A DNA stretch of 64,000 nucleotides from Chloroflexota bacterium (GTDB taxonomy: Bacteria > Chloroflexota > Dehalococcoidia > Dehalococcoidales > UBA2162): contig JBDRLU010000069.1 in NCBI GenBank assembly GCA_043812795.1, positions 31,308 through 95,307 on the forward strand, read 5' to 3'. The translations under genes were made by a program, and so were the position numbers. Below are positions 14,409 to 59,215 of the stretch, piece after piece (within the stretch, counting starts at the first letter, position 1; each line of letters begins with the position of its first letter). Under the pieces are notes generated by a model, which made no database searches, was not told the DNA's origin, and saw nothing but the letters and a program-made list of their open reading frames with translations.

Positions 14409-14527
14409 AAGTAACATTCTAGTAATACCTATCCAGTAACGCTACACTTGAAATACTGCAAATAGGCAGGTAGTTTTATCAACGGGATTTTGGAAGTTCA
14501 AATGTGTAGAAGGAGATCAACAAGGAA

Positions 14528-14863: not shown

Positions 14864-14932
14864 TCTGAACCCCAAAAATCAGTCCGCTTTAATGTTAGAC
14901 TGATGTGTAAACTCAGTTCGAAGGAGAAAACA

Positions 14933-15583: not shown

Positions 15584-15596
15584 AGGGGATAATACA

Positions 15597-15791
15597 ATGA
15601 ATTTTCAGGACAAGTCGATCCAGTGTTCCGATTGTGGGGACACTTTCACTTTCAGCGCTAAGGAACAAGGCCTTTTCGTATCAAGAGGTTATATTAATGA
15701 GCCAAAGCGCTGTTCCTGGTGCCGCGCCGCAAGGAAGATAGAGCGTCAGGGAGATGGCGACTACGGCCATCGGTCCAGATCCTGGCGGTAG
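15597..15791 (+). CDS. Zinc-ribbon protein (CxxC..CxxC), paralog of 17749..18051
   Basis: MNFQDKSIQCSDCGDTFTFSAKEQGLFVSRGYINEPKRCSWCRAARK. It sits 13 nt after rplY. Confidence 0.65.
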   Translation: MNFQDKSIQCSDCGDTFTFSAKEQGLFVSRGYINEPKRCSWCRAARKIERQGDGDYGHRSRSWR

Positions 15792-15923
15792 ATCTGAGCA
15801 ATATTCCTACCGTGTGTTAAATACATCAAGACACCAAGACACCATTCGAATCTTTCAACGGTAGACCGGCTCTTGTGGTAGCCGCTTTTGTAATCAGACG
15901 TCTGGGAAGCGAGTAAATAAGAC

Positions 15924-30750: not shown

Positions 30751-31361
30751 TCCCTCCCAGACTTATTCCCTTTTCGGGTCTGGCGCCAGACATAGACCAG
30801 TCTCTGGCCTACGGTAATAAAACTGAAGAGCGTCATAATAACAAGAGCAGTAACGAGAGCGTAATTGACCCGATATAACAACAGACCCACGGCCAGTATT
30901 ATTACCCGCTCGGTACGGGTGAATATTCCGACCTGGCATTCCAGGCCGGCACCCTCCGCCCGGGCCCGAATATAGCTTACCAGAAATGAACCGAGCAGGG
31001 TGACACCGACGAGTAATATCTTGGGCACTGAGCCTTCGACGGCGTAGATTGCCAAAATACCGAGTAGTGGTATGGCATCAGCCACGCGGTCGAGCGTAGA
31101 ATCAAGGACACCCCCGAAAATGGTGGTCCGCTGTGTGGTGCGCGCCAGCGCCCCATCCAGGATATCGAAGAAACCACCGACCAGGACGATGATACCACCG
31201 ACTACAGGATAACCGGTGGCGATAACCACACCTGCTGCCAGAGTCAGAACGAGCCCGAACCAGGTTATTTGATTGGGTGTTATGGCCGTTCTCGCCAGTA
31301 GATTGATAACAGACTGGGTGAGAGCTCCAGCCAAAGTCTTGCGAATATTCTGCAACTTCAT
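30747..31361 (-). CDS. CDP-alcohol phosphatidyltransferase (phosphatidylinositol-phosphate synthase-like)
   Basis: DILDGALARTTQRTTIFGGVLDSTLDRVAD matches D(x)2DG(x)2AR..G(x)3D(x)3D. The ATGA overlap with purA is 4 nt. The ORF track start at 31406 would overlap the upstream gene by 26 nt. Confidence 0.8.
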   Translation of the reverse strand: MKLQNIRKTLAGALTQSVINLLARTAITPNQITWFGLVLTLAAGVVIATGYPVVGGIIVLVGGFFDILDGALARTTQRTTIFGGVLDSTLDRVADAIPLLGILAIYAVEGSVPKILLVGVTLLGSFLVSYIRARAEGAGLECQVGIFTRTERVIILAVGLLLYRVNYALVTALVIMTLFSFITVGQRLVYVWRQTRKGNKSGRE

Positions 31362-31380
31362 CCCTTGACTCTTCACTATA

Positions 31381-32520
31381 TCAAGCCTTGTTCTGTCGTG
31401 TTTCATTTAATACTTGCGTATAGAAATCGAAGATACGGCGGGCAACGCGCTCCCAGCCATACTCTTCAACTTTAAGCTTGGCCCTTTCGCCCATTTGCCG
31501 CTGGAGAGTCGTATCCTTCATCAGGGAAATCAGCGTTTGGGCCAACTGATGACTATCACGCGGCGGGACGAGTAAACCCTCCGAACCGTGAGTGACGACA
31601 CTGGCATAGCCCTCGATATTGCTGGCGACAATAGGTTTGCCGAGAGCCATCGCCTCGAGCAGTATGATGCCAAAACTCTCCCGGCTGGTCGCTGGCGCGC
31701 AGAAAATATCGGCGGTCTGGTAATAGCGCGGGAGGTCGGCATCGGAGACGTAACCGATAAAAACGACGTCCTTCAGGCCGCTCTTCTTGACCCAGCCTTC
31801 GTACTTCTTGCGCAGGCGGGTGCCCGGGCCGACGGCAATGAGCCGTGAGTTAGGAATTTCCTGCTTGACCTTGTGATAAGCTTGAATCAGGTAACCCAAT
31901 CCCTTACGGCGTTCGAGGCGCCCGACAAAGAGAATGTTCTTCTTACCGTCGGAGAATTCCGGGATAGGCGTAACCTTCGGGGAAAAACGGGTCAGGTCAA
32001 CCCCGTTGGGAATAATAGCGTAATCACCCGGAACGTACTTGCGGGCAAAGTCCATCGCCGGTTTGGAGACGGCAATCTTACCGTCTAGCCGGCGGGACCG
32101 CCGCCATACCAGGATATTGGTGATAGGCCAGAATAAATTATAGCCCGGGCTACCGTGACAGGCATGGAAAGTCCCGATATTGGTGGAATCGGAAAAGCGC
32201 AATACCGCCGAACAGAGCATGGGCATGAAAGGCTCGTGCAAATGGACAATATCGAATTTTTCTTTAGCCAGGACTTCCTTTATCGTGGAAGCAAGCCGCA
32301 CCGATAAGGAAATGCGAACGATAGAGCCACTGCTCGGCAGCGGGCGGGGCTTACCGATGGGAATAAACCTATCGCCGAAGACAGAGACAGCCCGGGATAC
32401 CGGAGCAATGACCCGGACGTCGTGTCCCATCTGGGTAAGACGCTCTTCCAGCGCTGCAATATGATTGGCCACGCCTCCCGGGTAAGCAAAATCGTAAGGA
32501 GAGACCAGCGCTATTTTCAT
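31381..32520 (-). CDS. GT4 glycosyltransferase, PimA-like
   Basis: MKIALVSPYDFAYPGGVANH..FDIVHLHEP..IIPNGVD..FVGRLERRKG..ESFGIILLEAMALGKPIVAS is collinear with my recollection of mycobacterial PimA. Confidence 0.75.
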   Translation of the reverse strand: MKIALVSPYDFAYPGGVANHIAALEERLTQMGHDVRVIAPVSRAVSVFGDRFIPIGKPRPLPSSGSIVRISLSVRLASTIKEVLAKEKFDIVHLHEPFMPMLCSAVLRFSDSTNIGTFHACHGSPGYNLFWPITNILVWRRSRRLDGKIAVSKPAMDFARKYVPGDYAIIPNGVDLTRFSPKVTPIPEFSDGKKNILFVGRLERRKGLGYLIQAYHKVKQEIPNSRLIAVGPGTRLRKKYEGWVKKSGLKDVVFIGYVSDADLPRYYQTADIFCAPATSRESFGIILLEAMALGKPIVASNIEGYASVVTHGSEGLLVPPRDSHQLAQTLISLMKDTTLQRQMGERAKLKVEEYGWERVARRIFDFYTQVLNETRQNKA

Positions 32521-32635
32521 CGATCAACGTCCCGAACTAGCTTCAGCTTCATACCCACCACCTGAAGAGTAATGGACAAAGTTGAACCCACCGCTAACGT
32601 ATTCAGTCTCTCAAGCGGGCATCGCTCGGGAAAGA

Positions 32636-33745
32636 TTAACCTTTCGCCTTACTTTTAGTAGTGGTCTTTTTGGGTGCATTGGCGGCGATGTACTCTTCTA
32701 CCTTATCACGCGCCTCGTAATCTGCGAATTGTACCGGCGGTGATTTCATAAAGTAGGAAGAAGGCCCCACCAGTGCCCCCTTCAACCCACGGTCGAGGGC
32801 CAGCTTGACGCAGCGGATGGCATCGATGACCACACCTGCCGAGTTGGGGCTATCCCACACTTCCAGCTTCATGTCTAGGTTCAAGGGTACGTCACCGAAG
32901 GTACGCCCTTCCATCTTGATGTGGCAGAACTTGCGGTCGAGCAGCCAGGGCACGTAATCACTCGGCCCGACATGGATGTCATCCTGGTTCATCTTATAGG
33001 GTAACTGGGAAGTAACCGAGTTCGTCTTGGAAATTTTCTTGGACTCGAGCCGTTCCCGCTCCAGCATATTAAGAAAGTCGGTATTGCCGCCGAAGTTCAA
33101 CTGGTAGGTGTGTTCCAGCTTGACGCCACGCTCGACGAACAGGCGGGTGAGCACGCGATGCACGATAGTGGCGCCGACCTGGGATTTGACGTCATCGCCG
33201 ATAACCGGCAGGCCATGCTCCGCGAAACGGTCACTCCAGTCTTTGTGACTGGCGATAAAGACTGGAATACAGTTGACCATCCCGCAGCCGGCCTGCAGTA
33301 TCTGCTCAACGTACCATTTGGTGGCCGATTCGCTGCCTACAGGTAGATAGTTCAACACGACATCGGTCTTGGTATCCTTCAGGATTTGCACGATATTGGC
33401 CGTGGAGCCGGGGGCTTTTTGGATTATTTCCGAGAGATACTTGCCGAGGCCATCGTGCGTCATGCCCCTCTGTACCTTAACGCCGGTCACCGGCACGTCG
33501 CAGAACTTGTAAGTATTATTGGGCAGGGTATAAATTGCCTGGGCTAAGTCCTTGCCTACTTTGTTCTTATCGATATCGAAGGCAGCCACAAAATTGATAT
33601 CGCTGATATGGTAGCCGCCGAGGTTGACATGCATAATGCCGGGTATCTGCTCATGTTCTTTGGCGTTCTTGTAGTAGTGCACGCCCTGGACGAGCGATGA
33701 GGCACAATTACCAACGCCGATAATAGCGACGTTAATTTTTCCCAT
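32636..33745 (-). CDS. ino1: myo-inositol-1-phosphate synthase
   Basis: [16 protein letters not shown]..the archaeal/bacterial short MIPS pattern..[23 protein letters not shown]. Confidence 0.85.
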
Positions 33746-33956: not shown

Positions 33957-36900
33957 ATGTTCACTCATCTTCATGTCCATTCCGAGTACAGTCTGCTTGA
34001 CGGTATGTGCCGTATCCCGCAACTGGTGGCACGGGCTAAAGAACTTGGCATGGACAGCCTGGCCATAACCGACCACGGCGTGATGCACGGTGCCATTCAA
34101 TTTTATTCCGAGGCGAGGGAAGCTGGCATTAAACCGATTATCGGCTGCGAAGTTTACGTCGCCCCGGGTAGCCGCCTCGACCATAATGCCGGCGATAAAA
34201 ACAACTACCATCTGGTGTTGCTGGCCAAGAACCAGACCGGATACCGTAATTTAATCCAGCTTACCACCAGGGCCCACCTCGAGGGCTTTTACTATAAACC
34301 GCGCATCGATAAGGAACTGCTGCAGCAATACCATCAAGGCCTGGTCGGACTCTCCGCCTGTATCGCCGGTGAGGTTCCCGGTCTTATCCTGCAGGGCAGG
34401 CTCGACGAAGCCAAACAAGCGGCTTTATGGTATAAGGAAACCCTCGGTGATTTCTATCTGGAAGTGCAGCGGCATCCGATGCCGGAGCTCGACCAGATAA
34501 ATCGAGGTCTTATTCCGCTCAGTGCTGAGCTCGGTATTCCACTGGTGGCGAGCAACGATGTCCATTACATTAACCAGCGGGATGCTTCCTCCCACGACTT
34601 AATTATGTGTATCGGCACCAACTCAACCGTTAATGACGAGAAACGGATGAGAATGGCCGGGGACTTCTTCTATCTCAAAAGTCCCCAGGAAATGGCCGAG
34701 CTTTACCGCGACCTCCCTGAGGCGCTGGCTAACACCGAACGTATTGCCGAGATGTGCAATCTCAAGTTGGAGTTCGGCCGGCTGCATCTACCCGAAATAG
34801 AGCTGCCTGAAGGTAAGACTCCCGATGAGTACCTCAGTGACTTGTGTCATCAAGGGTTAGCTCAGTACTATCCCAACCCAACGCAAGAAATAAGAGAGCG
34901 GCTCAACTATGAACTGGATGTCATCAACAAGACCCAGTTTGCCAACTACTTTCTAGTAGTTTGGGATATTATCGCATTTGTAAAGAAACAGAAAATTCTC
35001 TTTGGTGTCCGAGGCAGCGCGGCGGCGAGCATCGTCTTGCATTGCCTGGGTATTACGGAAATCGACCCGATTCCGAATAAGCTCGTTTTCGAGCGCTTTC
35101 TTAATATCGAGCGTCGGGAAATGCCCGATTCGATATGGACTTTGAAGACACGCGCCGCGATGAAGTTATTGCGTATGTTTCCCAGAAATACGGGCAAGAC
35201 CATGTAGCCCAGATTATTACCTTCGGTACGCTGGGTGCCCGGGCTGCTCTCCGCGACGTCGGACGGGCTCTGGGCATGTCCTACGGAGATGTTGACCGTA
35301 TTGTCCGGATGGTCCCCTTTGCCCTTGGTATAACCCTGGAACGGGCGTTGAAGGAAAATAACGAACTGAAGACTATTTATGACGCAGATAAGATTGTTCG
35401 CAATCTTATCGATTCGGCACGGAGATTGGAAGGTATTTCCCGCCATGCCAGCACTCACGCTGCCGGTGTGGTTATCTCTAAAGAACCGCTCACCCGGTAT
35501 GTGCCGTTGCAGCGGGCGAGTAAGGGTAACGGCGATGCCTTGGTCATGACCCAGTTCAGTATGGAAGACATCGCCAAAATCGGCCTTCTGAAGATGGACT
35601 TTCTCGGTCTGGCTAACCTCAGCCTGTTAGGTAAAGCCAAAGAAATCATTACGCGGGAACGGGGCGTTGAGATTGACCTGCATAACCTGCCTATGGACAA
35701 TGCCAAGACTTTCCAGCTTCTCTCTTCGGGAGAAACCGCCGGTGTTTTCCAGCTGGAAGGTTCCGGCATGCGGCGGTATATCAAAGACCTTAAACCGACC
35801 GTCTTCAGTGATGTGGCCGCTATGGTTGCCCTCTACCGCCCGGGGCCGATGGAGCATATCCCCACTTTTATCAAGGCCAAACATGGTATCGAGGCCGTCC
35901 GTTATCCCCACCCCGCTTTAGAGAGTATCCTCAAGGAAACTTACGGTGTCATCGTCTACCAGGAGCAAGTGTTATTTATCGTGCGGGCTCTGGCGGGATA
36001 TAGCCTGGGGCAAGCCGATATTTTCCGCAAAGCGATGGGGAAGAAGATTCCTGAAGTTATGCAGAAAGAAAAACAGAATTTTCTGGCCGGAGCCGGGAAG
36101 AAGGGATTTTCGGCCGAGGTGGCATCGCAGATATTTTCCCTTATCGAGCCTTTCGCCGGCTATGCTTTTAACAAGGCTCACGCCTTTAGCTATGCCCTCA
36201 TCGCCTACCAGACGGCTTATCTCAAGGCCAATTATCCGGTAGAATATATTACCGCCTTTCTGATGACCAATGCCGGTCAGGCGGAAAAAGTGGCCAGCGG
36301 CGTTGCCGAGTGCCGGCGCCTGGGTATTAACGTGTTACCACCCGATGTAAACCGTAGCTCGGCTAACTTCTCTATCGAACGCGATACTGACCGGGCTGCC
36401 GCTATCCGCTTTGGCCTGGCTAATATCAAGAACGTAGGGATTGGGGCCATCGAACCGGTTATTGCCGAGCTCATTCAAGGCGGTGAGTTTAAATCTATTG
36501 AGGACTTCTGCCGCCGTAGCGACCCACGGGGGATAAATAAGCGGGTGATGGAAAGCCTGATTAAAGCCGGTGCCTTCGATTCTCTTGGTAAAAGAGGCCC
36601 GCTGCTAGAGAACCTCAATAATATTCTGGGTCTGGCGCAAAAAGAGCAACGTTTGCGGGAAACCGGCCAGTCCACCATGTTTGACCTCTGGGGAGCGACT
36701 GTTCCCGTTCCGCTCCCCAGTCTCGATTTGGATATTGAAGATGTTACCGCCCAGGAGAAATCAACTTGGGAAAAAGAGCTGCTGGGGGTCTCGTTTTCCA
36801 AGCAACTGTTCAGTCTGGGCAAGGTCGACCCGGGAACAACACTCTGCGGAGAAATTGATGCCGAATTAGCCGGGCAGGCAGTTACGGTAGTGGGCGAAGT

Positions 36901-37447
36901 AGCGATGGTAACCTCATCTTTCACCCGGGACCGCCGTCCTTTTATCACCGCAACGCTGGAAGATATTAGCGGTCGGCTGGAGGTCATGGTCTGGCCGAGA
37001 GTCTTTGAGAGCACGGGTGAGTTGTGGCATGAGGGTAATGTCCTGCGTGTCGAGGGTAAAGTGAGGGTCAGGGACGACCGGATGCAAATGAGCTGTGATA
37101 AGGCTGAGCCTTATGAACCGGAAGCTCAGAAACAGCCGGTGCCAGCGCCTAAATCTGAGACACGTGCGGCGAAAAACCCTTCACCTGAGGTCGTGCTTCC
37201 GAAACACCGGCTGGTAATCAGCATTGCCCAGACGAGCGACGAGAAGAGCGACGAGACCTACTTACAGAGAGTTTTTAACATTATTAAAGAATTCCCCGGC
37301 GACGATGAAGTCAGTTTGAAAGTCAATATTGACGAAAGTGTACATAACCTGAGGTTGACGACCGCACGTTGCTGTTCGGAACTCGAACAGCAACTGGCGG
37401 AGGTGGTCGGGCCGGATGGGCTGAGAGTGGAAACTATTATTCCCTAG
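33957..37447 (+). pseudogene. dnaE: DNA polymerase III alpha subunit (DnaE). The frame is broken by an apparent 1-nt deletion at 35130/35131; this may be an authentic frameshift or a sequence error.
   Basis: ORFs 33957..35207 (PHP domain, frame 0) and 35135..37447 (palm/fingers/OB, frame 2) are collinear with one roughly 1163-aa DnaE. The junction reads ATG CCC GAT TC GAT ATG GAC. Confidence 0.85.
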
Positions 37448-46027: not shown

Positions 46028-46384
46028 TCATAAATATTTGGGAAAGCCAACACTGATCAATGTCCTAATGGCGCCGATGACCGCAGCTGGTGCCATTAAT
46101 CGGGCAAGATACTGAACAATTTCGTTAACATGAGTACCCAGCCCACTCACCAATTGATTAAGGGGTTCGAAACCAGCGGTGCCAACTACAATGAGGGCTA
46201 TAGCTGCCACTGACAACGGAACAAAATCTCTAGCAGTGATATTAAGAACGCCGACAATGATACCTAAGACTGCGAGTGCTAGAACGATTGTGGCACTACT
46301 CGGGGCAGCCAATCCGGCGACAATAGCGAGTATCAGCCCCACGGTAAAGGCCAAAAAGCCGATTAATTGTATAATCCTTCTCAT
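46028..46384 (-). CDS. Hypothetical membrane protein
   Basis: Three or four hydrophobic helices. I recognise no family. Confidence 0.4.
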   Translation of the reverse strand: MRRIIQLIGFLAFTVGLILAIVAGLAAPSSATIVLALAVLGIIVGVLNITARDFVPLSVAAIALIVVGTAGFEPLNQLVSGLGTHVNEIVQYLARLMAPAAVIGAIRTLISVGFPKYL

Positions 46385-46431: not shown

Positions 46432-48378
46432 TCACCTCGGGCTCCCGAAGAAAACCACCGCTAGCGGGGGCAGGGTGAAGGTTATGGAACAGGGGCGGCC
46501 CTGGAAGGGAATCGGTGCTGCTTCCACGCCGCCAAAGTTACCGTGACCACTGCCTCCGTATTCCTTGGCATCGCTATTAAGTAGTTCTTTCCAGAATCCT
46601 GAACGCGGTACACCTATACGATAGTTCAGGCGAGGTACCGACGTGAAATTAGCCACTAAAAGCACACTATCGTTATTGACTCGTCCCTTTCTAACAAAGC
46701 TGACCACGCTTTGCTCGATATCTTTGCAGTCAATCCACTCAAATCCGGATGGAGTATAGTCCTGTTGGTAAAGAGCCGGCTGGCTCCGGTAGAAGCGGTT
46801 CAGGTCTTCAACCCAGAGCTTGAGTGCCGTGTGCGGCGGGTAATTTAAGAGGTGCCAGTCCAAGCTACCATCATGCTCCCACTCCCCCCACTGACCGAAC
46901 TCACCTCCCATGAAAAGCAGCTTTTTCCCAGGTTGAGCATACATATAGCCTAGGAGTAACCTCAAGTTGGCAAACTTCTGCCAATCATCCCCGGGCATCT
47001 TACCAAGAAGTGAACTCTTACCATAGACAACTTCATCATGAGAAAGGGGAAGAATAAAGTTTTCAAAAAAGGCATATATTAGCCGAAAGGTGAGATTATT
47101 GTGATGGTACTTACGGTAGATAGGGTCCATAGTCATGTATTCCAGCGTATCATGCATCCAGCCCATATCCCACTTGAGTCCGAAGCCTAACCCTCCAATG
47201 TACACTGGCCGGGATACCATCGGCCAGGCAGTGGATTCCTCGGCAATGGTCTGAACCCCAGGATTTTCCTGATAGACCGCTTCATTGAGGTGGCGTAGAA
47301 AGGCGATGGCCTCCAGATTTTCACGACCCCCATACTTATTGGGTATCCACTCACCTGCCTTGCGTCCGTAGTCCAGATAAAGCATGGAGGCAACGGCGTC
47401 CACACGTAGTCCGTCAACGTGGTGTTTGTCCAGCCAGAAAAGGGCACTACTGAGCAGGAAGCTCCTGACCTCGTTGCGGCTGTAATTAAAGATAAAAGTA
47501 TTCCAGTCAGGATGGATCCCCTGCTTCGGGTCCTCGTGTTCGTAGAGATGTGTACCATCAAAATAACTCAGTCCATGTTCATCGTTCGGGAAATGGGAAG
47601 GCACCCAGTCGAGGATGACACCTATATCATGCTGGTGTAGATAGTCAATAAGGTACATGAAATCCTGCGGGGTACCATAACGGCTCGTGGGAGCAAAATA
47701 GCCAGTAGTCTGGTAGCCCCATGACCCGTAGAACGGGTGCTCCATGACCGGCAAAAACTCAACATGTGTGAAACCCATTTGCTGTAAATACTCAGCAAGA
47801 AGAGGAGCCAACTCCCGGTAGGTGAGATGGCGGTTCTGCTCTTCAGGCACGCGCCGCCAGGAACCGATGTGTACCTCATAAATGGAAATAGGAGTATCCA
47901 GCGCGTTTCGTTCCTGCCTTTTCTGCATCCACGACTGGTCTCCCCAGTCATAATCTAAGTCCCAGACAACCGAGGCTGTTTTCGGTGGTATCTCATCATA
48001 GAATGCCAGTGGGTCAGCTTTGTCTACTTGGTAACCATGATGATGGGAAACAATGTGGTACTTGTAGAGGGCACCCTTACTTACATTTGGAATTAAGCCT
48101 TCCCAGATGCCAGATTGTCCCTTGGGACGCAGTGGATGGCTCGACTTATTCCAACCATTGAATTCTCCAGTGACGAATACTTGCTTAGCATTGGGTGCCC
48201 AAACGGCAAAATGGGTTCCTGCAACTCCGTCTACAATGGTAGGGTGGGCTCCCAACTTTTCATAGAGCCGATAATGAGAGCCCTCATTGAAGAGGTATAG
48301 GTCATTATCGGTCAATTTGCTCACATCGTATTTAACTGCTGCCTTTCTATCTTTCCTCTGTTCCATCCTAGACTTCAC
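46432..48378 (-). CDS. glgB: 1,4-alpha-glucan branching enzyme
   Basis: GH13 motifs [34 protein letters not shown]. The N-terminus is of CBM48 type. Confidence 0.9.
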
Positions 48379-48455
48379 CCCCTTTGTAATTTGGGATTAA
48401 TTCCAAACGAACTAATGACCTTAGTCGACTCAAATAATCGCTCCAGGCTTGTTGC

Positions 48456-51400
48456 TCAAATGCTTACCTCCATCACTTGCAATATGCCTTGAAGAGGTAC
48501 CCTTACCCAGTTAGGCCGATTGTTGAGCTCATAGCCAATTTCGTAGATGGCTTTCTCTAAAATATAGGCGTCGAGAAGAATCCTTAGCTGGTCTGGAGAC
48601 TCAGGTAGTAGGTGAGCCTGTCTCATCCCATCTAGGTACGACGTCAGAAACGATACTGAGACCCAGACGTACCAGTACTGTGCCCAATGCTCCAGTACAG
48701 GGAGGTCGCTTTCTGCATGGGGCGCTAACGGTACCTGACGAAGAAGGGCGCTGTGAGCAGCATAGTGAAAAGAACGTATGAGCCCAGCAACATCCAGAAG
48801 AGGCGAGCGCTTGAGACGCCGTTCACTCAGCGAACGTGCAGGCTCACCCTCAAAGTCAATGATGACAAAGTCTTTACCGGTATAAAGAACCTGACCCAAA
48901 TGATAATCGCCATGGCAGCGTATTCTTGCGGCCGAAATCCTTTGCTTACGGATTAGTTGATAGCGTTCAATGATAGGCTTTTCTAAGTCTAGAGTCTGTT
49001 GCGCGTTTTCCTTAAGTTCTGGCGGCAGATCCTTTAGCTTCTCTCGTAGCAACTGCAGTATTCGGATGGTGAAACTACGCATAGACTGGTAGAGCGAGGT
49101 CTGGTACATACCTGAAAACGGCTCCGGAGTAAAGTCTGGGTCATCCGGCACAGAGGCCAGAGCCAAATGAAGTTCGGCGGTGCGCTGTCCCAGAAGCTGT
49201 GCCGAAACTAGATAGGGACCGATAGTCTCCCTCGCAAGAGAGGGAGGCTCCTTTAGCAACGATAGCAGGTGTCTCTGAGGAACGGGTGGCGCCTGCACTG
49301 TAGGATGTGATAACACAGATTGAAAGTAACGCTCTAGTGAGTCCAGAGTATAACGCCATGCATCCCCCTCGTTGGGCACGAAGCCCTGTAGGACGGCCAG
49401 ACTTATCGGCTTGCCCTTTGCCCGAGAATATTCAAGAGCACCCGCTAATGGAGAAATGTGAGTAAACGATGTCTTTTCCGTAAGAAAGCGGCCGATTTCC
49501 AGTTCCGGATTAATCCCCTCTCCAAGCTGACGGAAAAGCTTGAGTATCAATCGGTTCCCATAAACTACAGAGGTATTGGTCTGCTCCACTTTCATCGGGG
49601 TGGGTTCCAGAGGAACTTCATCTGAGCCACGGGTACCGCGGAAAGTCCGAGTTGACGAAGCGACTATCTCCCCGACTTTCCCTTTGAAACGGCGCCTTCG
49701 ACCGATGCTTTGCAAGAGGAACTTGCAGAAGCTCTCGTCTATCATAGCATCGCAGAGTAGCGATTCACTGTCTTCGCCTGGTACCCCGAGGCGAGCGACA
49801 ATAGCCTGGGACTGGTCACTACCAATCCCACCCATCTGGTCAGCAGAAGTGACAATGAGAGGAACTACATAAGTCTCCGGCTCACCCTCCGTGTAATCAA
49901 TCTGAATGAGGATAACACAGGTAGTAGATTGTGAGGGGTTCATTGGAATGACATCCGTGATTCGGGATGACCGGATGTCTCTCGCTTTACTGCGGAACCA
50001 GCGGCGGCCTCTCATATAGTTCTGCAGTACTGATTCCAGTACAGGCCAGTTTTCTTTGTCAAACAGTTCACTACCCGTCTTCGCGATGTTTGGGACCGCC
50101 ATTATTTCCTCTGAAGGCAGAGTGCGGAGTCGCAGTGTCTCTGTCGGCTGTGGTTGTAAGGAAAACCAGTAGAAGGCGTACGGGCCAAGAGTAAAATAGT
50201 ATTTACCATCACTGACTGGTGTGAACTCCACCCGCCCGAAAAGGTCGATCAGCCTCCAACCTGTAAATTCGGGGAGGTCCAATTGTGTCTGTTGTACCAA
50301 ACGTGAAAGATTAACAACCACCAGGATTGTCTCCTCCTTATAGCGCCGGAGAAAAGCTAGGACCCTGCGGTTTTGCGGTTGAAGGAATTCAATAGTGCCA
50401 CGGCTAAGGGACTGATAGTGTTTTCGCAGGGTAATAATGCGCTTCATCCACCATAGTAAGGAATCGCTATTGGCCTGTTGTGTCTCTACATTTATTGCCT
50501 CATAGTGGTATTCTGGGTCAACTACCGGCGGGAGGTAAAGTCTCTGCGGATTGGAGCGGGAAAAGCCGGCATTCCGTTCGGGACTCCATTGCATCGGGGT
50601 GCGTACCCCGTTGCGGTCTCCGAGATAGAAGTTGTCACCCATACCGATTTCATCTCCGTAGTAAATCACCGGCGTCCCGGGCAGTGAAAAGAGTAGCGCA
50701 TTCATCAACTCGATCTTCTTCCGGTCATTGTTTAGTAGTGGAGCCAGGCGGCGGCGAATACCAAGGTTGATGCGGGCAGCGGGGTCGCTGGCATAGATAC
50801 GGTACATGTAGTCCCGCTCCTCATCGGTGACCATCTCCAGTGTCAACTCGTCATGGTTACGAAGGAAAATAGCCCACTGGCAGTTTTCCGGTATTGGTGG
50901 AGTCTGCTGGAGAATGTCAACGATGGGGAATCGGTCTTCCATGCGGATCGCCATAAACAAGCGCGGCATAATGGGGAAATGAAAGGCCATGTGGAACTCA
51001 TCCCCATTACCAAAATAGGGAACTACGTCCTCAGGCCACTGGTTAGCCTCAGCCAAAAGCATGCGGTTCTTGAATTTGTTGTCAATATGTGCCCGCAATT
51101 CCTTTAAGAAGGCATGAGTTTCGGGCAGGTTTTCACAGCTGGTTCCCTCCCGTTCGTAAAGATAAGGCACGGCGTCCACTCGCAGCCCGTCAACTCCCAG
51201 CTTCAACCAGAAGTCCATAACCTTGAATATTGCCCTTCGCACCGTAGGGTTATCGTAGTTCAGGTCGGGTTGATGGGAATAGAAGCGATGCCAATAGTAT
51301 GCCTTGGCCAGGTGGTCCCATGTCCAATTGGAATACTCAAAATCCTTAAATATGATACGGGCTTCCTTGTATTTCTCTTGAGTGTCGCTCCATACGTAAA

Positions 51401-51809
51401 AGTCACGCGAACGGCTTCCAGGAGCCGACCTTCGTGCCTGCTGAAACCACGGGTGCTGGTCAGAAGTATGGTTAACAACCAACTCTGTGATGACACGCAA
51501 GCTATGGCGATGTGCTTCCTCAACAAAGGTTTTGAAATCACCCATTTGCCCGTAGATAGAGTGGACGTTGTAATAGTCAGAAATATCATAGCCATCGTCT
51601 TTGAGTGGCGAGGGGTAGAACGGAAGTAACCACAGAGTACTAACTCCAAGGTCTTCAAGATAATCAAGTTTCTCTATCAGTCCCTGGAAGTCACCAACGC
51701 CGTCGGCATCACTATCATGGAAGGACCTGACGTGAAGTTCGTAAATTACTGCGTCCCTATACCAGAGGGGGTCGTCTCGAAATGATAATATTTCGGTGTT
51801 TCTTATCAT
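48456..51809 (-). CDS. treS: Trehalose synthase fused to maltokinase (TreS-Pep2)
   Basis: The N-terminal GH13 TreS region reads YELHVRSFHDSDADGVGDF..GLRVDAVPYL..RNHDELTLE. The C-terminal maltokinase kinase-like region reads RCHGDYHLGQVLYTGKDFVIIDFEGEP. Confidence 0.9.
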   Translation of the reverse strand: MIRNTEILSFRDDPLWYRDAVIYELHVRSFHDSDADGVGDFQGLIEKLDYLEDLGVSTLWLLPFYPSPLKDDGYDISDYYNVHSIYGQMGDFKTFVEEAHRHSLRVITELVVNHTSDQHPWFQQARRSAPGSRSRDFYVWSDTQEKYKEARIIFKDFEYSNWTWDHLAKAYYWHRFYSHQPDLNYDNPTVRRAIFKVMDFWLKLGVDGLRVDAVPYLYEREGTSCENLPETHAFLKELRAHIDNKFKNRMLLAEANQWPEDVVPYFGNGDEFHMAFHFPIMPRLFMAIRMEDRFPIVDILQQTPPIPENCQWAIFLRNHDELTLEMVTDEERDYMYRIYASDPAARINLGIRRRLAPLLNNDRKKIELMNALLFSLPGTPVIYYGDEIGMGDNFYLGDRNGVRTPMQWSPERNAGFSRSNPQRLYLPPVVDPEYHYEAINVETQQANSDSLLWWMKRIITLRKHYQSLSRGTIEFLQPQNRRVLAFLRRYKEETILVVVNLSRLVQQTQLDLPEFTGWRLIDLFGRVEFTPVSDGKYYFTLGPYAFYWFSLQPQPTETLRLRTLPSEEIMAVPNIAKTGSELFDKENWPVLESVLQNYMRGRRWFRSKARDIRSSRITDVIPMNPSQSTTCVILIQIDYTEGEPETYVVPLIVTSADQMGGIGSDQSQAIVARLGVPGEDSESLLCDAMIDESFCKFLLQSIGRRRRFKGKVGEIVASSTRTFRGTRGSDEVPLEPTPMKVEQTNTSVVYGNRLILKLFRQLGEGINPELEIGRFLTEKTSFTHISPLAGALEYSRAKGKPISLAVLQGFVPNEGDAWRYTLDSLERYFQSVLSHPTVQAPPVPQRHLLSLLKEPPSLARETIGPYLVSAQLLGQRTAELHLALASVPDDPDFTPEPFSGMYQTSLYQSMRSFTIRILQLLREKLKDLPPELKENAQQTLDLEKPIIERYQLIRKQRISAARIRCHGDYHLGQVLYTGKDFVIIDFEGEPARSLSERRLKRSPLLDVAGLIRSFHYAAHSALLRQVPLAPHAESDLPVLEHWAQYWYVWVSVSFLTSYLDGMRQAHLLPESPDQLRILLDAYILEKAIYEIGYELNNRPNWVRVPLQGILQVMEVSI

Positions 51810-51815
51810 GAGATT

Positions 51816-52181
51816 CTAGTCACCAAGCAGAGTATGTACAAACTCCATCAATTCTTTGATACCGATTGGTTTGACCAGAAGAGCACCGGCCCCATGTTTC
51901 ATACTGTCCCGCTGAATGGTGGGACTACGCTGTGGCGAAATCACAATAAATGGTATCTTTGTCTTCCGCATTTGCTCGCAGCGCTGCCAGATGCGCTGGT
52001 CAAACCCAGACAGGTCTACGAGAGAAAGTGCAATACCCTGTTTCCCCTGGATAGCATCATCGAGTTCCTCCATACTAGCGGCGCTGAGCGTCTTGTAGCC
52101 CTCTCTACCTAATTGCTGTGATAGTAGTTCCAAATTTGTACGATTGGTACCCACCGTTAGAATCACCGGTTTCTCAGTCAT
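51816..52181 (-). CDS. Stand-alone receiver-like (CheY-fold) protein lacking the acidic Mg-binding pair
   Basis: The REC pattern has the phospho-acceptor-position Asp (LSLVDLSG), Ser at the T87-equivalent position (FIVISP) and Lys (LLVKPI). The N-terminal DD position reads VGTN. It sits 6 nt upstream of treS-pep2. Confidence 0.75.
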   Translation of the reverse strand: MTEKPVILTVGTNRTNLELLSQQLGREGYKTLSAASMEELDDAIQGKQGIALSLVDLSGFDQRIWQRCEQMRKTKIPFIVISPQRSPTIQRDSMKHGAGALLVKPIGIKELMEFVHTLLGD

Positions 52182-52227
52182 GGCTCACCCCCCCACCAGT
52201 TGGTGACAATTCCATCTGCCCTATCGC

Positions 52228-53712
52228 TTACCTACTCCCCCCACCCATCAGGGAGCGCATAAGTCCCACACCTCCAAGAATACCGCCCATCATCGTTAAG
52301 GTCTTGCCTACTCTTATTCCCCGACGAGTAATTTCAAACTCACACAAGTTTTTATCAAAGTCACTCGTACGTTTTTCCAATATACCAATGGTCCGGCGCA
52401 GCTCTCCTGCCGTCTCCACGTAGCGTAGAAAAATGACGTTGTCTGCCAGGTAGCTTATACCAGCTTCGGTAGCACGGAACTCACCGGTTATGCTTTCCAC
52501 TTCGCTAATCAGTATCGCTGTCACCCCCATGTTTTTCAGATAACGGCACAGCGCATTAAGATGAGAGGCCAAGTCCTTGCTGGCCAAGGAAAGTTGATAA
52601 CCAGCGGTACTATCCAGCATTATAATCCGGGTATTATTCTCCTCCACTTCTCTTCTCACCAGGTAAGCAAACTCATCAGTCGTGTAGTATAGCGGCTCTA
52701 TCTCCATTACAGATAATGTGCCTTTTTCCAACATAGAACGGACAGGCATCTTAATACCATCGCACCGGCGGAGCATGGTTTCTCTGCCTTCTTCAAAACT
52801 GTAAACCACCGAACGCTCTCCTCTCCCCGCTGCCTCCCTTAAAAACTGGAGACCGAGCGTCGTTTTGCCTACCCCAGCCGGACCGCTGATGATGGTAACT
52901 GTCCCCCTCTCCAATCCCCCATGGAGCATTTTGTCCAGTTCCGGTACCCCGAAGGTAAGAGACTCAACCACAAAGTCTCTATGGTATGCCCCGGGTATTA
53001 GCCGCGGGAAGACTTCCATGCCGCTGCTTCCCAAGCGTAAGGAGTGCTGTCCGCTTTGAAAGCCCGAACCGCGGAACTTAGTCACGCTGACCGTCCGTCC
53101 CGTGGTCGGGAAGTCCAGGCTAATTACTCCATCGCTCAGGAATTGCAGGTCATCGTCAGGAGCCTCAGTACTTCCTTCAGAGCAGAGGAGAACGGTAGCG
53201 CCTTGTTCCGTCAGATAGCGTGACAGGGCCAGCATTTGCTTGCGGAACTGGAAAGCATCAGTGGTAAGGTAGCGAAATTGGGTGGCTGAGTCTACAAATA
53301 CGCGACTCGGCTTGAGCCTTTCTATCTCTCCCTTAATTTTCTCAGTGGTTGCTCCCCTCTCCACTTCCGCAGGAGAGAAAATGTCATAGCTCTGTGACTC
53401 GGTAAAGAATTCTGAAGATGGGGTCAGATCCAGAAAGCTGACCCCCTTAAGGTCAAAACTCAGAGATGCCGCATTCTCGCGCACCTGTTCTTCCGGTTCA
53501 CCTAAGGTGATGAAGAGGACATTCTCACCTGCAGTTGCACCGTTGGTCAGAAAGTGCAAACCGACCGTGCTTTTACCAGTGCCTGGCCCGCCTCGAACAA
53601 GGTAGACTCGCCGGGCAACGAGTCCGTGGTGCAGGATTTCGTCCAGACCCGGTACCCCGGTGGATATACGCATTTCAGATTCCTTGTTTTTCTCCACTCT
53701 CTCGCTAGGCAT
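52228..53712 (-). CDS. KaiC-like double-domain RecA-superfamily ATPase
   Basis: Two KaiC-type modules: GVPGLDEILHHGL..GGPGTGKST and GVPELDKMLHGGL..GPAGVGKTT. Walker B-like DS motifs are present. The C-terminal block reads ISYLADNVIFLRYVETAGELRR. Confidence 0.8.
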   Translation of the reverse strand: MPSERVEKNKESEMRISTGVPGLDEILHHGLVARRVYLVRGGPGTGKSTVGLHFLTNGATAGENVLFITLGEPEEQVRENAASLSFDLKGVSFLDLTPSSEFFTESQSYDIFSPAEVERGATTEKIKGEIERLKPSRVFVDSATQFRYLTTDAFQFRKQMLALSRYLTEQGATVLLCSEGSTEAPDDDLQFLSDGVISLDFPTTGRTVSVTKFRGSGFQSGQHSLRLGSSGMEVFPRLIPGAYHRDFVVESLTFGVPELDKMLHGGLERGTVTIISGPAGVGKTTLGLQFLREAAGRGERSVVYSFEEGRETMLRRCDGIKMPVRSMLEKGTLSVMEIEPLYYTTDEFAYLVRREVEENNTRIIMLDSTAGYQLSLASKDLASHLNALCRYLKNMGVTAILISEVESITGEFRATEAGISYLADNVIFLRYVETAGELRRTIGILEKRTSDFDKNLCEFEITRRGIRVGKTLTMMGGILGGVGLMRSLMGGGSR

Positions 53713-53739
53713 TTGTACCTCCTTCAGGTTGGCTAATCT

Positions 53740-55734
53740 TTACAGGTAATAATCAAAGTCACGCTCACTACGCACACGCCGACGCACGCGCAAGATATGA
53801 GCTGGTACAATCTGCGGGTTGAGTTCCACATAGTTTCGTGAGCCCTGCCACAGGTAGCGAGCTCCGCTCAGCAGGTCATGCACCTGGTAGGGTTGCGTGG
53901 AATCAAGCCCCAGTATATCGAGAGGGAGTTCTAGCCAGCCCGAGTGGGTATGGTGAGGATCCAGATTCGCAACGACCACTATGATATTGGAAAAATCTTC
54001 GGTATGCTTACTGTAGCAAATCAGGCGGTCGTTATCTATAGGGTGGAAACTCAAGTTCGAGTCGCGCTGAAGCGCCGCATTTTCCCGGCGAATGCGATTC
54101 ACCCGACCGATAAAATCCTTCAAACTGTCTGGCCGGGCAGTATCCCAGTGCTTCACCTCATACTTTTCGGAGTCCAAGTACTCTTCGCTTCCCGGCTCCT
54201 TCGGTCGGTTTTCACACAGCACAAAAGCGGGGCCATAAATCCCGTAATTTGCTCCCAACGTGGCGGCCAGGGTAAGGCGCACCATAAAAGCTGCTCGACC
54301 ACCTGCCTGGAGATACTCCGTCAGGATGTCGGGGGTGTTTGGCCAAAGGTTGGGACGGAAATACTCACGCAACTCTGATTGGGTCAGGTCATCAAAGTAC
54401 TGAGTGAGTTCCCATTTTGTATTCCGCCAGGCAAAGTAGGTATAGGACTGGCTAAATCCGAGCTCGGCAAGCTGATACATTACGTTGGGTCGAGTAAACG
54501 CCTCGGCGAGAAAAATTACCTCGGGGAATGTCTTCTTAATTTCACTAATCAGCCACTCCCAGAAACTGAATGGCTTGGTATGAGGATTGTCGACCCGAAA
54601 GATGCGGACGCCTTGCTCAATCCAAAAGAGCATTATACTTTTGAGTTCCTGCCAAAGCTGTTTCCAGTCATCACTTTCAAAATTAAGCGGATAGATGTCC
54701 TGGTATTTCTTGGGCGGGTTTTCCGCGTACTGCACTGTCCCATCTGGTCGCCAGGAGAACCACTTGGGATGCTCCTTTACGTAGGGATGGTCTGGCGAAC
54801 ACTGGAACGCGATATCTAGAGCGATTTCTATACCATGTTCTTCGGCGTTAGAAACAAGCCGACGGAAGTCTTCTAGTGTGCCAAGCTTCGGATGAACAGC
54901 CATGTGCCCACCTTCTTCGGCACCAACGGCCCACGGTGTTCCTGGGTCACCCGTCCCGGCAATAATCGTATTGTTCTTCCCTTTTCGATTGGTATGTCCA
55001 ATGGGATGAATGGGTGGGAGATAGAGAACATCGAAGCCCATTTCGGCAATGTAGGGCAGTTGAGCTTCACAATCCTTAAAGGTACCATAGCGTCCCGGCT
55101 CTATTGCGCAAGAGCGGGGGAACATCTCATACCAAGTGCTGAAGCGAGCTTTTTCCCGATCCACAACTACCACAAGTTGCTTGGGGTAGGTAGCGACGAA
55201 CTTCCGGCTAGCGTATTTGTCCATGAGGCTAGCTACCTCATCACTCAAGGCTAGCTGAACCTTATCCTTTTCCATAACCCCTGGCGATTGCAGGTTTTTT
55301 ACCCACCCTTGCATAATCCGTTTGTCAGCGGGGGCTGCTCTTTCGCTTCCCTCGGCAATAAGTTGCGCACCGGCGAGAATATTGACCAAGATATTCTCCT
55401 GGCTAGCCTCGACCCTTTTTTGCAGATCCACTCGCCAGGACTTGAAACGGTCTACCCAGGCTACAATCGTATATACATAGCGCCCGAGTTCAGTTACTAC
55501 AAAAGACCCTCGCCAGCAGTCATTCCGCGATGGTTCCATTACCGTTTCGGACCATTTGGAGTCGTTCTCTGTGCGATATAAAAGACATGTCGAAAGACTA
55601 TCGTGGCCATCCGCAAAAACGACCGCCTCGATATTTACCTTCTCACCAATGACCCGTTTGATAGGGAAACGTCCGTCCTCAATCTCAGGCTCCACATTCT
55701 TGATAGTTACGCGAACCCTATCTTCGAATTCCAT
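53740..55734 (-). CDS. glgE: Alpha-1,4-glucan:maltose-1-phosphate maltosyltransferase
   Basis: The N-terminal block is V.P..DGRFPIKRV.GE.V...A.VFADGHD, followed by a GH13_3 catalytic core. Confidence 0.9.
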   Translation of the reverse strand: MEFEDRVRVTIKNVEPEIEDGRFPIKRVIGEKVNIEAVVFADGHDSLSTCLLYRTENDSKWSETVMEPSRNDCWRGSFVVTELGRYVYTIVAWVDRFKSWRVDLQKRVEASQENILVNILAGAQLIAEGSERAAPADKRIMQGWVKNLQSPGVMEKDKVQLALSDEVASLMDKYASRKFVATYPKQLVVVVDREKARFSTWYEMFPRSCAIEPGRYGTFKDCEAQLPYIAEMGFDVLYLPPIHPIGHTNRKGKNNTIIAGTGDPGTPWAVGAEEGGHMAVHPKLGTLEDFRRLVSNAEEHGIEIALDIAFQCSPDHPYVKEHPKWFSWRPDGTVQYAENPPKKYQDIYPLNFESDDWKQLWQELKSIMLFWIEQGVRIFRVDNPHTKPFSFWEWLISEIKKTFPEVIFLAEAFTRPNVMYQLAELGFSQSYTYFAWRNTKWELTQYFDDLTQSELREYFRPNLWPNTPDILTEYLQAGGRAAFMVRLTLAATLGANYGIYGPAFVLCENRPKEPGSEEYLDSEKYEVKHWDTARPDSLKDFIGRVNRIRRENAALQRDSNLSFHPIDNDRLICYSKHTEDFSNIIVVVANLDPHHTHSGWLELPLDILGLDSTQPYQVHDLLSGARYLWQGSRNYVELNPQIVPAHILRVRRRVRSERDFDYYL

Positions 55735-55975
55735 CGTAAACTTCCTTTATATCATCGAATCTATTGAGATTGGAAGAACTTATATGCATTAGTATCCCTT
55801 ACAGACATTCTAACTGATGCGAACGTAACCTTCAACCAATAAGCCCATATGTCGGGGTATAGTGATAATTTGATATTGGTGCGCCATAATACTCAAGATG
55901 ACCTTGCGGTAGAAAAGTGTTTAACAATCAGTATAGTATCTAAGGAGATTACAATACAGGGCACCGGAAACATTG

Positions 55976-56209
55976 AAAGCTCAGATGGCGGAGCTAGAGG
56001 CGCAGATCAAGGCTGGCCAGGATGCCATTATCAGTATACCAAAGCTAGAGAGCTTTATTGCGCGTATGTAGGGTCGGATATCTGCGCTGGACTTTGAGAG
56101 TAAGCGCCAAGTGTTAGATATGCTCGGTATCACCGTATGAATTGGCGGTGAGTCTGTGGAAGTAACTGGCGTGATAGATACAGAGGCTGTGATTGTGACT
56201 GCGACCCCT
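55976..56209 (+). pseudogene. Remnant of the C-terminal tail of a large serine recombinase (two in-frame stops, N-terminal ~80% absent)
   Basis: The frame reads KAQMAELEAQIKAGQDAIISIPKLESFIARM*GRISALDFESKRQVLDMLGITV*IGGESVEVTGVIDTEAVIVTATP. This is a coiled coil followed by an LDFE.KR..L..L...V.I.G..V.I.G.I pattern typical of that family's C-terminus. Confidence 0.5.
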
Positions 56210-56215
56210 TATTCT

Positions 56216-56279
56216 TATTTCCCTTCTCCTCACCAGGAGAAGGGAAATAACTTTTAAAGAGGGGGCTAAGCCCCCTCTT
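56216..56279. terminator. Two consecutive perfect hairpins
   Basis: TATTTCCCTTCTCCT-cacc-AGGAGAAGGGAAATA at 56216-56249, and AAGAGGGGGC-taa-GCCCCCTCTT at 56257-56279. They lie between the recombinase remnant and the 3' end of the minus-strand gene. Confidence 0.5.
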
Positions 56280-56351
56280 GTATTTACCCACTCTCTCCTC
56301 ATAAGCTCATAGGAACGTACAAAATGAATAGCAATACCTGTACTACCAACC

Positions 56352-57769: not shown

Positions 57770-59215
57770 TTACGGCTGGTTTTTCTTCCGGTAGTATTCG
57801 ACCATCAGCTTAATCGCTCTCCCCGCCCGGCTCATCGACGCATAAAAAGGGATACCGGCGGTAATGAGCTTTGTCCTGGCTTCGTAAACCGGCTTCCACC
57901 AATAGTGGTCGTAATTATCGATACCCGGGCTCCTCTCTCCGACTATCACCAGCAACGGTTTTGCACTATCCTTCTTTATCTTGATGTATTCGTCGATATT
58001 GTTACTCAGCCGGGAAAGCATTCTTTCTTGGGTATTAAGAACAACACTTGTCCCTTCATTGAAATTGGCGATAAGCAGGTCGAAGTCCGGGTTAGCAGCC
58101 ATCATCCGCAGCATATCCAAGTCGGTAAATTTAAACCCGCCCAGGATGGATACATCCGTCGGGTTCCCGACCCAGTCCCATATCGGAATACCTTTACTTT
58201 TTAGCTCCTGACGGATTTTATCCGGCAGGTTGATAACGTCCAGCCCGGCCTCTTCGCAATCATCGGCGGAAAGTACGCTTGGTCCGCCGCCTCCACCGAC
58301 GATACCCACCCTCAGCCCGGCAATCGGGGGCAAGAAATAAAATGAGGTAACAACATCAGCCATTTCATCGAAATTATGAACGGGAATCGCCCCCGCCTGC
58401 ATGACCAGATTTTCCCATGTCCGGAAAGAGCCGGCCAGTGAGGCGGTATGGGAGGCGGTGGCTCTCGTCCCGGCTTGGCCGCGGCCACCCTTAATGATAA
58501 TTACCGGCTTGACCGGAGTCACCTTACGCAGGGTCTGGAAAAACCGGCGACCATCACGTACCCCTTCAACATACATCAGAATTATCTTTGTCTCCGGGTC
58601 CTACACCATATATTCCAGGTAATCCGATTCATTAAAATCGACTGCATTGCCGTAGCTAATCGCTTTGCTGAAGCGGACACCCCGCAACGAAGCCAAATGG
58701 ATAAAGTTAGCCGAACCGCCACCGGTCTGGGAAGCTAAGCTGACATACCCCGCCTCTTTAGGTAGGTTATACGCAAAAGAAATCCCCTGTCCGGGATAAT
58801 ATAGACCCATACAATTTGGCCCGATGAGGCGGATACCCAGTCTCTTAGCCTGTTCCAATATTTTCCGTTCGAGGTCAGCTGCCTCCGGACGCCCGGTCTC
58901 ACTGAAACGGGCGGTATAAAGATGGACGGCTTTGACCCCTTTTTGAGAACCTTCCTCCAGCATCGGAATAACCTCGGCGGCGGGGATACATGAAATCACA
59001 TAGTCCACAGAGTCCGGTACATCCCTGAGGCGTGCGTATGTCTTGATACCCAGGATTTCCGGATAGCTGGGATTTACCGGGTAGATTTTACCTTTGTAGC
59101 CATACTCTAAAAGATGATGGGTATAGCTGTAACCCATGGCATCGGGATTAGCCGAGGCTCCGAGCACGGCAATCGAACGGGGATGGAGAATTTCGTCTAA
59201 CACGTGTGTCGCCAT
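57770..59215 (-). pseudogene. ADP-forming acyl/acetyl-CoA synthetase alpha-type protein (CoA-binding plus CoA-ligase domains) with one in-frame TAG at 58601-58603
   Basis: ORFs 58601..59215 and 57770..58576 are in the same frame. The read-through is ..NESDYLEYMV*DPETKIILMYVEGVRDGRRF.., a contiguous conserved block of this family. Confidence 0.75.

Follow-up and report, generated by a model that had tools for sequence, protein, structure and literature searches.

The 64,000-nucleotide stretch analyzed here, referred to below as the window, comes from a Chloroflexota bacterium of the Dehalococcoidales (contig JBDRLU010000069.1) and contains a GlgE-type α-glucan gene cluster in which genes for a KaiC-like ATPase and a receiver-like (REC-like) protein are placed among those of the pathway enzymes. 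Five minus-strand open reading frames (ORFs) fill positions 46432-55734 in the order glgE, KaiC-like, REC, treS-pep2 and glgB, with intergenic gaps from glgE to glgB of 27, 46, 6 and 77 nt. The glgE product (53740-55734, minus strand, 664 amino acids) matches both GlgE-specific Pfam domains (GlgE_dom_N_S, 2.6e-53; GLGE_C, 2.6e-33) together with Alpha-amylase (9e-11), and no NCBIfam equivalog reaches its cut-off. The KaiC-like gene (52228-53712, minus strand) encodes a 494-amino acid candidate two-domain ATPase/autokinase of the RecA superfamily in which PF06745 is matched twice (2.4e-79). The REC gene (51816-52181, minus strand) encodes a single-domain protein of 121 amino acids, classed as an atypical or pseudo-receiver, with a PF00072 score of 29.3 bits. 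The start of treS-pep2 (48456-51809, minus strand, 1117 amino acids) is located 6 nt past the REC stop, and the fused trehalose synthase and maltokinase exceeds both curated cut-offs (TIGR02456, 903.7 versus 678 bits; TIGR02457, 490.9 versus 375 bits). The branching enzyme encoded by glgB (46432-48378, minus strand, 648 amino acids) scores 1002.5 bits against NF003811 (cut-off 741).

All four activities of the GlgE pathway (GlgE, TreS, Pep2 and GlgB) are therefore encoded at the locus according to the Pfam and NCBIfam profiles. The five genes, their strand and the gap lengths given in the original prediction, which was made from the sequence alone, agree exactly with the ORF calls, and the identities assigned there are those returned by the profile searches. 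The canonical GlgE clusters of actinomycetes and Pseudomonas have the same four enzyme activities and a treS-pep2 fusion, but they carry no KaiC-like or receiver gene. The arrangement had been proposed to be undescribed, and full-text searches of open-access papers returned no description of it.

Conservation and ancestry of the gene pair

Related loci were compared from species-representative genomes (at least 60 loci) and metagenomes (48 loci), each searched with the five window proteins, and all locus counts are lower bounds. In the four neighborhoods with KaiC-like proteins 70-80% identical to that of the window (L001-L004), the order glgE-kaiC-REC-treS/pep2-glgB or a derivative of it is present in every case. 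Where the KaiC-like protein is at least 69% identical (at least 15 loci, L001-L004, L008, L068-L075, L099 and L119, plus the window), REC and then treS-pep2 follow wherever the contig extends, and the REC proteins of these linked loci are 71-82% identical to the window REC. GlgE orthologues with 68-75% identity occupy the same position in L001-L003, L070, L071, L073, L074, L099 and L119, and glgB is placed 3' of treS-pep2 in every linked locus long enough to show it. Where the KaiC-like protein is at most 67% identical, a GlgE-pathway gene is found nearby in none of at least about 90 loci; these unlinked loci span Cyanobacteria, Chloroflexota, Armatimonadota, Tectomicrobia, Terriglobia and other groups.

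The GlgE-linked KaiC-like proteins are monophyletic in neighbor-joining trees (100 of 100 bootstraps), as are the linked REC proteins (175-184 of 200), and the named sources of the clade are Chloroflexota, Dehalococcoidales and "Dehalococcoidaceae" metagenome-assembled genomes (MAGs). Proteins identical to the KaiC-like and REC proteins of the window are recorded at NCBI for a MAG labeled "Chloroflexota bacterium". Two of the loci closest to the window (L068 and L075, KaiC-like 88-90% identical) are labeled as sediment metagenome. Synonymous sites are saturated between the window and L001 or L003 (pS 0.74-0.90) with the gene order retained, and independent contigs from metagenomes and MAGs, none of them a near-identical recent copy, carry this order again. 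The dN/dS ratio is about 0.10 for both the KaiC-like and the REC genes against the closest relative L068, indicating purifying selection, and their dN resembles that of the enzyme genes. The linked loci often run on into genes for an ADP-forming acetyl-CoA synthetase, a DRTGG-domain protein and malQ, and their metabolic surroundings comprise genes of glycolysis, PFOR, ADP-forming acetyl-CoA synthetase, glgP/C/A and malQ. The pair is a conserved, clade-specific recruit of the GlgE operon under selection. The original prediction had turned in part on whether relatives link the two genes to glgE and treS, and the order or its derivatives are kept across this monophyletic Chloroflexota/Dehalococcoidales clade.

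Outside the clade the two genes belong to a different unit. REC homologues, mostly about 40-53% identical, are located directly 3' of KaiC-like genes in at least about 45 unlinked loci, and the KaiC-like proteins of this unit are 55-67% identical to that of the window in most loci (L005-L044, L076-L115). The gene after REC encodes a histidine kinase in 27 of the 30 unlinked loci tested (Pfam HATPase_c in 27, HisKA in 23); its start is usually 5-12 nt past REC and its product often has 346-396 amino acids. The N-terminal 120 residues of the kinase are homologous to REC (hhalign probability 96.6%, E 6e-10), which suggests that REC-type domains are the docking units of the KaiC-like proteins. The common module is thus a KaiC-like gene, REC, and a kinase with a REC-like-HisKA-HATPase_c architecture, and its make-up corresponds to that of the Pseudomonas KaiC networks considered below. 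The placing of REC as the likely partner of the KaiC-like protein, proposed from the window alone, fits a genuine and widespread gene pair in unlinked and linked loci alike. The window cluster shares with the module the order kaiC then REC and the tight coupling of REC to the next gene, and differs from it in that this third gene is treS-pep2 rather than a kinase and in that the GlgE-linked proteins form a clade of their own. The GlgE-linked pair derives from this module, with treS-pep2 and glgB now filling the kinase slot. A tblastn search of the 64-kb window detects no HisKA/HATPase_c-like kinase and no second receiver.

The junction between REC and treS-pep2 is the most constant element of the linked loci. 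The distance from REC stop to treS start is 1-7 nt in 14 of 14 linked loci measured, and the other gaps are looser (4-80 nt from kaiC to REC, 27-147 nt from glgE to kaiC). One sub-branch (L004, L008, L069 and L072) has no glgE upstream and instead carries genes for PGK, PFK, aldolase or ROK kinase, pyruvate kinase and PFOR. In L004 a 57-59-amino acid ORF matching the GlgE N-domain (1658-1837) is retained between the pyruvate kinase gene and kaiC, showing that glgE has been deleted from the locus in this sub-branch. A sister clade (L116-L118, L120-L122 and L123) has no kaiC and is arranged as glgP-glgC-glgA-glgE-REC-treS/pep2-glgB, with a glgE-to-REC gap of 55 nt in L116; its REC proteins are monophyletic (190 of 200 bootstraps) and no kinase is present in the 6-9-kb flanks. 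REC thus stays beside treS-pep2 in the absence of kaiC, marking it as the component wired to the pathway. The proposal that a KaiC/REC pair is built into a GlgE operon is upheld as a conserved arrangement but needs amending in its details, because the constant element is the adjacency of REC and treS-pep2, while kaiC is not always present and glgE has been lost in one sub-branch.

The REC profile was run against 1.84 billion representatives, of which 457 match at E ≤ 1e-10. Most of these are standalone proteins of about 120 amino acids, and the search also brings up proteins in which REC is joined to an Ala/Gly/Val-rich repeat domain or to a kinase. In P0362 (REC 56% identical; L124, 57-782) a repeat-REC fusion is positioned 4 nt before a treS-pep2 gene whose product is 69% identical to that of the window. 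The REC domains of P0362, P0364, P0365 and P0384 are joined to long repeats of this type (G.DV..V..KA.EGAIEA.K..G), which give no significant Pfam match (P0384 has a sub-threshold match to DUF883, E 0.009) and may form a scaffold or targeting element.

The KaiC-like and REC-like proteins

The KaiC-like protein aligns end to end with a solved KaiC structure (PDB code 8zn5, E 7.7e-56). Walker A motifs are present in both domains (GGPGTGKS and GPAGVGKT) and are invariant in the clade. With reference to the KaiC catalytic glutamates E77/E78 in CI and E318/E319 in CII and the phosphosites T426, S431 and T432, the CII glutamate pair is kept (FEEGRE) and invariant in the clade, and CI reads LGEPEE with the first catalytic glutamate replaced by glycine. 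Residues T415, S420 and Y421 align with T426, S431 and T432, with T415 and S420 invariant or nearly so in the clade. Comparison of the linked with the kinase-linked KaiC-like proteins gives 182 conserved positions in common and a small group-specific cluster at residues 309-325. A C-terminal LRGILxGTPEW motif found in nearly all kinase-linked homologues gives way to Gly-rich tails in the linked clade. Since the positions specific to the group are limited to this cluster and the C-terminal tail, the engine is in essence unaltered.

The KaiC equivalog models score well under their cut-offs (NF006799, 250.5 versus 408 bits; TIGR02655, 160 versus 546 bits). The window yields no tblastn match to KaiB at E up to 1, with a hand-typed query sequence, and KaiA is likewise not detected there, in line with the earlier remark that neither gene is present; no KaiB is listed in the flanks of those related loci with Pfam-annotated gene tables. 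A bona fide circadian KaiC is rejected on the scores under the curated cut-offs and on the lack of a KaiB match in the window. Two further members of the family were observed in unlinked loci. In L101 the KaiC-like match (673-2073) is part of an ORF of about 686 amino acids with a C-terminal extension ending in ...AKKNGRNQVVFQEI, which resembles the tail of a GGDEF diguanylate cyclase and looks like another alternative output fused to the KaiC-like family. At 14344-16598 the Anaerolineae contig of L005 carries a second KaiC-like gene. Two receiver genes precede it and a gene for a 2307-amino acid MEDS/GAF/PAS multi-sensor protein comes after it, so that a single genome can hold several KaiC-like modules.

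The PF00072 score of the window REC is just below the gathering score of 30.2 bits, and a precomputed PF00072 match exists for most homologues. The AlphaFold2 model (pLDDT 93.4) has the (βα)5 fold of CheY and superposes in Foldseek on solved receivers with TM scores of 0.82-0.89 (about 0.85); at the sequence level, solved receivers match it weakly (Spo0F, E 1e-4). No DNA-binding domain is present. The acidic pair that binds Mg2+ in CheY (D12/D13) is replaced by G11/T12, and the linked group has a G/S consensus at these positions, the kinase-linked group D/R, with no member having DD. The remaining active-site residues D56 (98-100%), S82 (86-100%) and K104 (100%) are conserved in both groups. 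Also common to both are N13, N16, L17, L19, L20, Q22 and L24 of α1, the D56-G59-F60-D61 segment and the W65/C68 surface. Conservation restricted to the linked group is concentrated on the α4-β5-α5 face (R85, P87, R91, M94, K95, S99, K109, E113, H116 and T117), and K73 and K75 are also specific to this group.

Phosphorylation-independent pseudo-receivers include the KaiA N-domain, the CikA PsR domain, FrzS and similar proteins. The window REC is like them in its CheY fold, degenerate acidic pocket and presumed action by protein-protein contacts, and unlike them in keeping D56, S82 and K104; its sequence kinship to them is no closer than to generic receiver domains. In cyanobacteria the KaiABC oscillator acts through a SasA/CikA-RpaA output and governs glycogen cycling. 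The window KaiC-like protein shares with cyanobacterial KaiC the Walker motifs, the pair of catalytic glutamates in CII and residues equivalent to T426 and S431, and there is a conceptual link to storage glucan, whereas KaiA and KaiB are not detected in the window, the protein scores under the KaiC cut-offs, tyrosine replaces T432 and CI has GE rather than EE. The partner differs as well, having a CheY rather than a thioredoxin-like fold, and the proposed output is enzymatic rather than transcriptional. By analogy, a standalone REC beside a kinase with a homologous N-domain may be likened to standalone KaiB and the KaiB-like N-domain of SasA.

The closest described counterparts are in environmental Pseudomonas, where KaiC homologues bind a neighboring histidine kinase as well as a single-domain response regulator, besides affecting resistance to osmotic and oxidative stress, and where group I KaiC-like proteins have SY or TY at the phosphosite (Terrettaz et al., 10.1101/2022.01.26.477890). 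Like these networks, the window has a two-domain KaiC homologue without KaiA or KaiB, an SY pair (S420/Y421) at the S431/T432 positions as in group I, and an adjoining gene for a single-domain receiver-type protein without a DNA-binding domain, and the link of the Pseudomonas networks to stress physiology is counted as a further likeness. The window differs from them in that treS-pep2 rather than a histidine kinase follows REC, in the loss of the REC acidic pocket and of the KaiC-like C-terminal motif in its clade, and in its Chloroflexota host.

Transcription signals and other genes in the window

Upstream of glgE is a 617-nt spacer. Two adjacent perfect hairpins read from the sequence (56215-56280, minus strand), placed 3' of the preceding PNP_UDP_1 family gene, are the likely 5' boundary of the transcription unit, and a terminator scan flagged one of them at 56261-56276. 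A weak candidate sigma-70-like promoter (55807-55835, minus strand; TTGAAG-17-TAGAAT, 9 of 12 matches) is located about 70 nt before the glgE start. No terminator-like match is present on the gene strand within the intergenic gaps of the cluster, with scan counts at the shuffle expectation. To judge from the sequence, the cluster is probably transcribed as one unit. A small hydrophobic ORF 3' of glgB (46028-46384, minus strand, 118 amino acids) is a probable membrane protein and possibly the last gene of this unit; the Pfam and NCBIfam scans return no match for it, and a counterpart at the same position (84% identical) occurs in L001 only. An Rfam scan gives one tRNA elsewhere and, at the operon or close to it, neither a riboswitch nor any further RNA element. 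The GC content of the kaiC-REC insert is not distinctive. An 82-amino acid ORF region in the glgE spacer (55849-56097, plus strand) resembles by eye the leftover C-terminal part of a recombinase, an in-frame stop separating ...LEAQIKAGQDAIISIPKLESFIARM from GRISALDFESKRQVLDMLGITV, and may be the scar of a past rearrangement beside the operon.

Searches of the window by tblastn for glgC/A/P, malQ, PK, PFK, ROK and CheY give no match, an ACD-like gene being the exception. A gene for an ADP-forming acyl-CoA synthetase-like protein is split into two minus-strand ORFs (57770-58576 and 58601-59215), with the cut through the Succ_CoA_lig domain falling near position 50-60 and a tblastn match to the intact L003 homologue spanning 59197-58151. 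An intact synthetase of the same family (38% identical) is encoded directly after glgB in L003 and L004. DNA polymerase III alpha is apparently split into overlapping plus-strand ORFs (33957-35207, with PHP and the start of DNA_pol3_alpha, and 35135-37447, 770 amino acids); a frameshift, a misassembly or a real division of the gene may account for this. Three consecutive genes at 30747-33745 (minus strand) encode myo-inositol-1-phosphate synthase, a CDP-alcohol phosphatidyltransferase and a GT4 glycosyltransferase, suggesting a pathway to an inositol lipid or an inositol-phosphate solute. The ORF at 22007-23209 (minus strand) encodes a 400-amino acid CetZ-like tubulin homologue (Pfam Tubulin, 4.4e-29; CetZ_C, 5.7e-12). 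CetZ is known as an archaeal family. Archaellum clusters in Chloroflexota are reported in the literature, and genes of archaeal-type cell biology may merit attention in this phylum.

Possible modes of action and significance

Taken together, the data point to a previously undescribed direct regulator of the GlgE pathway. The reading preferred here, about as likely as not, is that a signaling pair was captured by the GlgE operon, that enzymes replaced the kinase in its slot, and that REC acts directly on TreS-Pep2 or GlgE. REC would then be a phosphorylation-independent pseudo-receiver or adaptor that binds TreS-Pep2, its invariant neighbor, and possibly GlgE, through the re-modeled α4-β5-α5 face, and its binding would set how much trehalose flows on to maltose-1-phosphate and glucan. 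The KaiC-like hexamer would be an ATPase/autokinase with conserved threonine and serine phosphosites that binds or releases REC depending on its nucleotide or phosphorylation state, and the decision between trehalose and glucan would be coupled to energy or stress status with no transcriptional step. Maltose-1-phosphate is described as toxic on accumulation in a passage of PMC4663749, which makes the TreS-Pep2 step a logical control point. The loss of the TPEW motif together with the lack of a nearby kinase argues for a kinase-independent output. The fuller claim, that a KaiC-family ATPase/autokinase controls TreS-Pep2 and possibly GlgE directly via a pseudo-receiver and without histidine kinase or transcription, is put forward tentatively and appears somewhat less probable than its opposite.

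Several observations weigh against direct control. The contacts among REC, the KaiC-like protein, TreS-Pep2 and GlgE, and the direction of regulation, are proposals drawn from gene neighborhoods in uncultured organisms. The continued conservation of D56, S82 and K104 makes phosphorylation or another use of the active site possible. Position 11 is aspartate in the kaiC-less sister clade and mostly glycine in the kaiC-linked clade, a pattern that differs from the one predicted if the pocket were simply lost along with the kinase. The glycine at the first CI catalytic glutamate means that the ATPase cycle may differ from that of KaiC. The kinase search covers 64 kb of the genome, and a cognate kinase could be encoded elsewhere. 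No REC-TreS fusion is present among the top 120 matches of a chimeric query of REC and TreS residues 1-420, a list saturated by TreS proteins of many phyla (best local alignments 75-87% identical), and none is found in the REC profile search. Promoter and terminator match counts in the region that equal those of shuffled sequence say little on operon structure and leave the sigma-70 match a candidate only.

Foremost among the alternatives, although unlikely, is that the pair signals via an unlinked histidine kinase or response regulator to control transcription of the operon or a wider regulon, its position serving only co-expression with the glucan genes. The ancestral module works with kinases and the Pseudomonas KaiC-like proteins act via a kinase and response regulator, which, together with the conserved REC residues and the 64-kb extent of the genome inspected, favors such a route, but REC has neither a DNA-binding domain nor the Mg2+-binding acidic pair, and the kinase-associated TPEW motif is lost from the linked KaiC-like proteins. 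The invariably short REC-treS junction, and the persistence of REC beside treS-pep2 in kaiC-less clades with no kinase in their flanks, also speak against an unlinked kinase.

A somewhat less likely explanation gives REC no signaling role and makes it an adaptor, a localization factor, or a subunit for structure or assembly of TreS-Pep2, with the KaiC-like protein as an optional accessory ATPase. The retention of REC with treS-pep2 where kaiC is absent is as expected for a subunit, as is its fusion in L124 and related proteins to an amphipathic repeat resembling a targeting or scaffold element, and a passage of PMC6509496 reports that mycobacterial TreS and Pep2 form a complex. TreS-Pep2 nevertheless works without REC in most phyla, with no REC domain among the 75-87% identical TreS N-domain matches; the closest REC relatives all partner KaiC-like proteins in signaling modules, and strong purifying selection acts on the KaiC-like protein, whose catalytic and phosphosite residues are kept.

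It is improbable that the KaiC-like protein acts as a timer, of hourglass or clock-like type, to schedule glucan synthesis and mobilization as for cyanobacterial glycogen. Its family membership and conserved T426 and S431 equivalents are compatible with timing, and part of the literature on the Pseudomonas KaiC-like proteins describes time-dependent phosphorylation. The lack of detectable KaiA and KaiB in the window, the scores under the KaiC equivalog cut-offs, the tyrosine at T432 and the missing CI glutamate are all contrary to a timer; the sister clade does without kaiC, and a Chloroflexota/Dehalococcoidales clade with sediment-labeled members (L068, L075) has no evident diel cue. A neutral or hitch-hiking insertion with no glucan role, for which the apparent recombinase-like remnant upstream of glgE and the undistinctive GC content of the insert might speak, is most improbable and is contradicted by the conservation and selection data, namely gene order kept despite saturated synonymous divergence, dN/dS of about 0.10, monophyly of the clade, and a REC-treS adjacency that outlasts kaiC loss, glgE loss and domain fusion.

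What is new at this locus, as far as sequence comparison can tell, is a known KaiC-like/REC signaling module with a new and apparently enzymatic output. Regulation of the GlgE pathway has been very sparsely studied and is largely unknown, phosphorylation of GlgE by PknB in actinomycetes being the exception (PMC11046441, a 2024 review), and a passage of Terrettaz et al. (10.1101/2022.01.26.477890) describes the function and outputs of KaiC homologues outside cyanobacteria as largely unknown. The locus is a natural experiment in which the KaiC-like/REC engine, elsewhere partnered with a kinase, is attached to four well-assayable enzymes, and recombinant proteins would allow the hypothesis to be tested even in organisms that are uncultured. 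The locus could show whether KaiC-like modules act post-translationally on metabolism. If direct control by the pair is true, the locus would provide the first case of a KaiC-family output connected directly to an enzyme and the first dedicated regulator of flux into the GlgE pathway, set between trehalose as a stress protectant and glucan as a storage compound.

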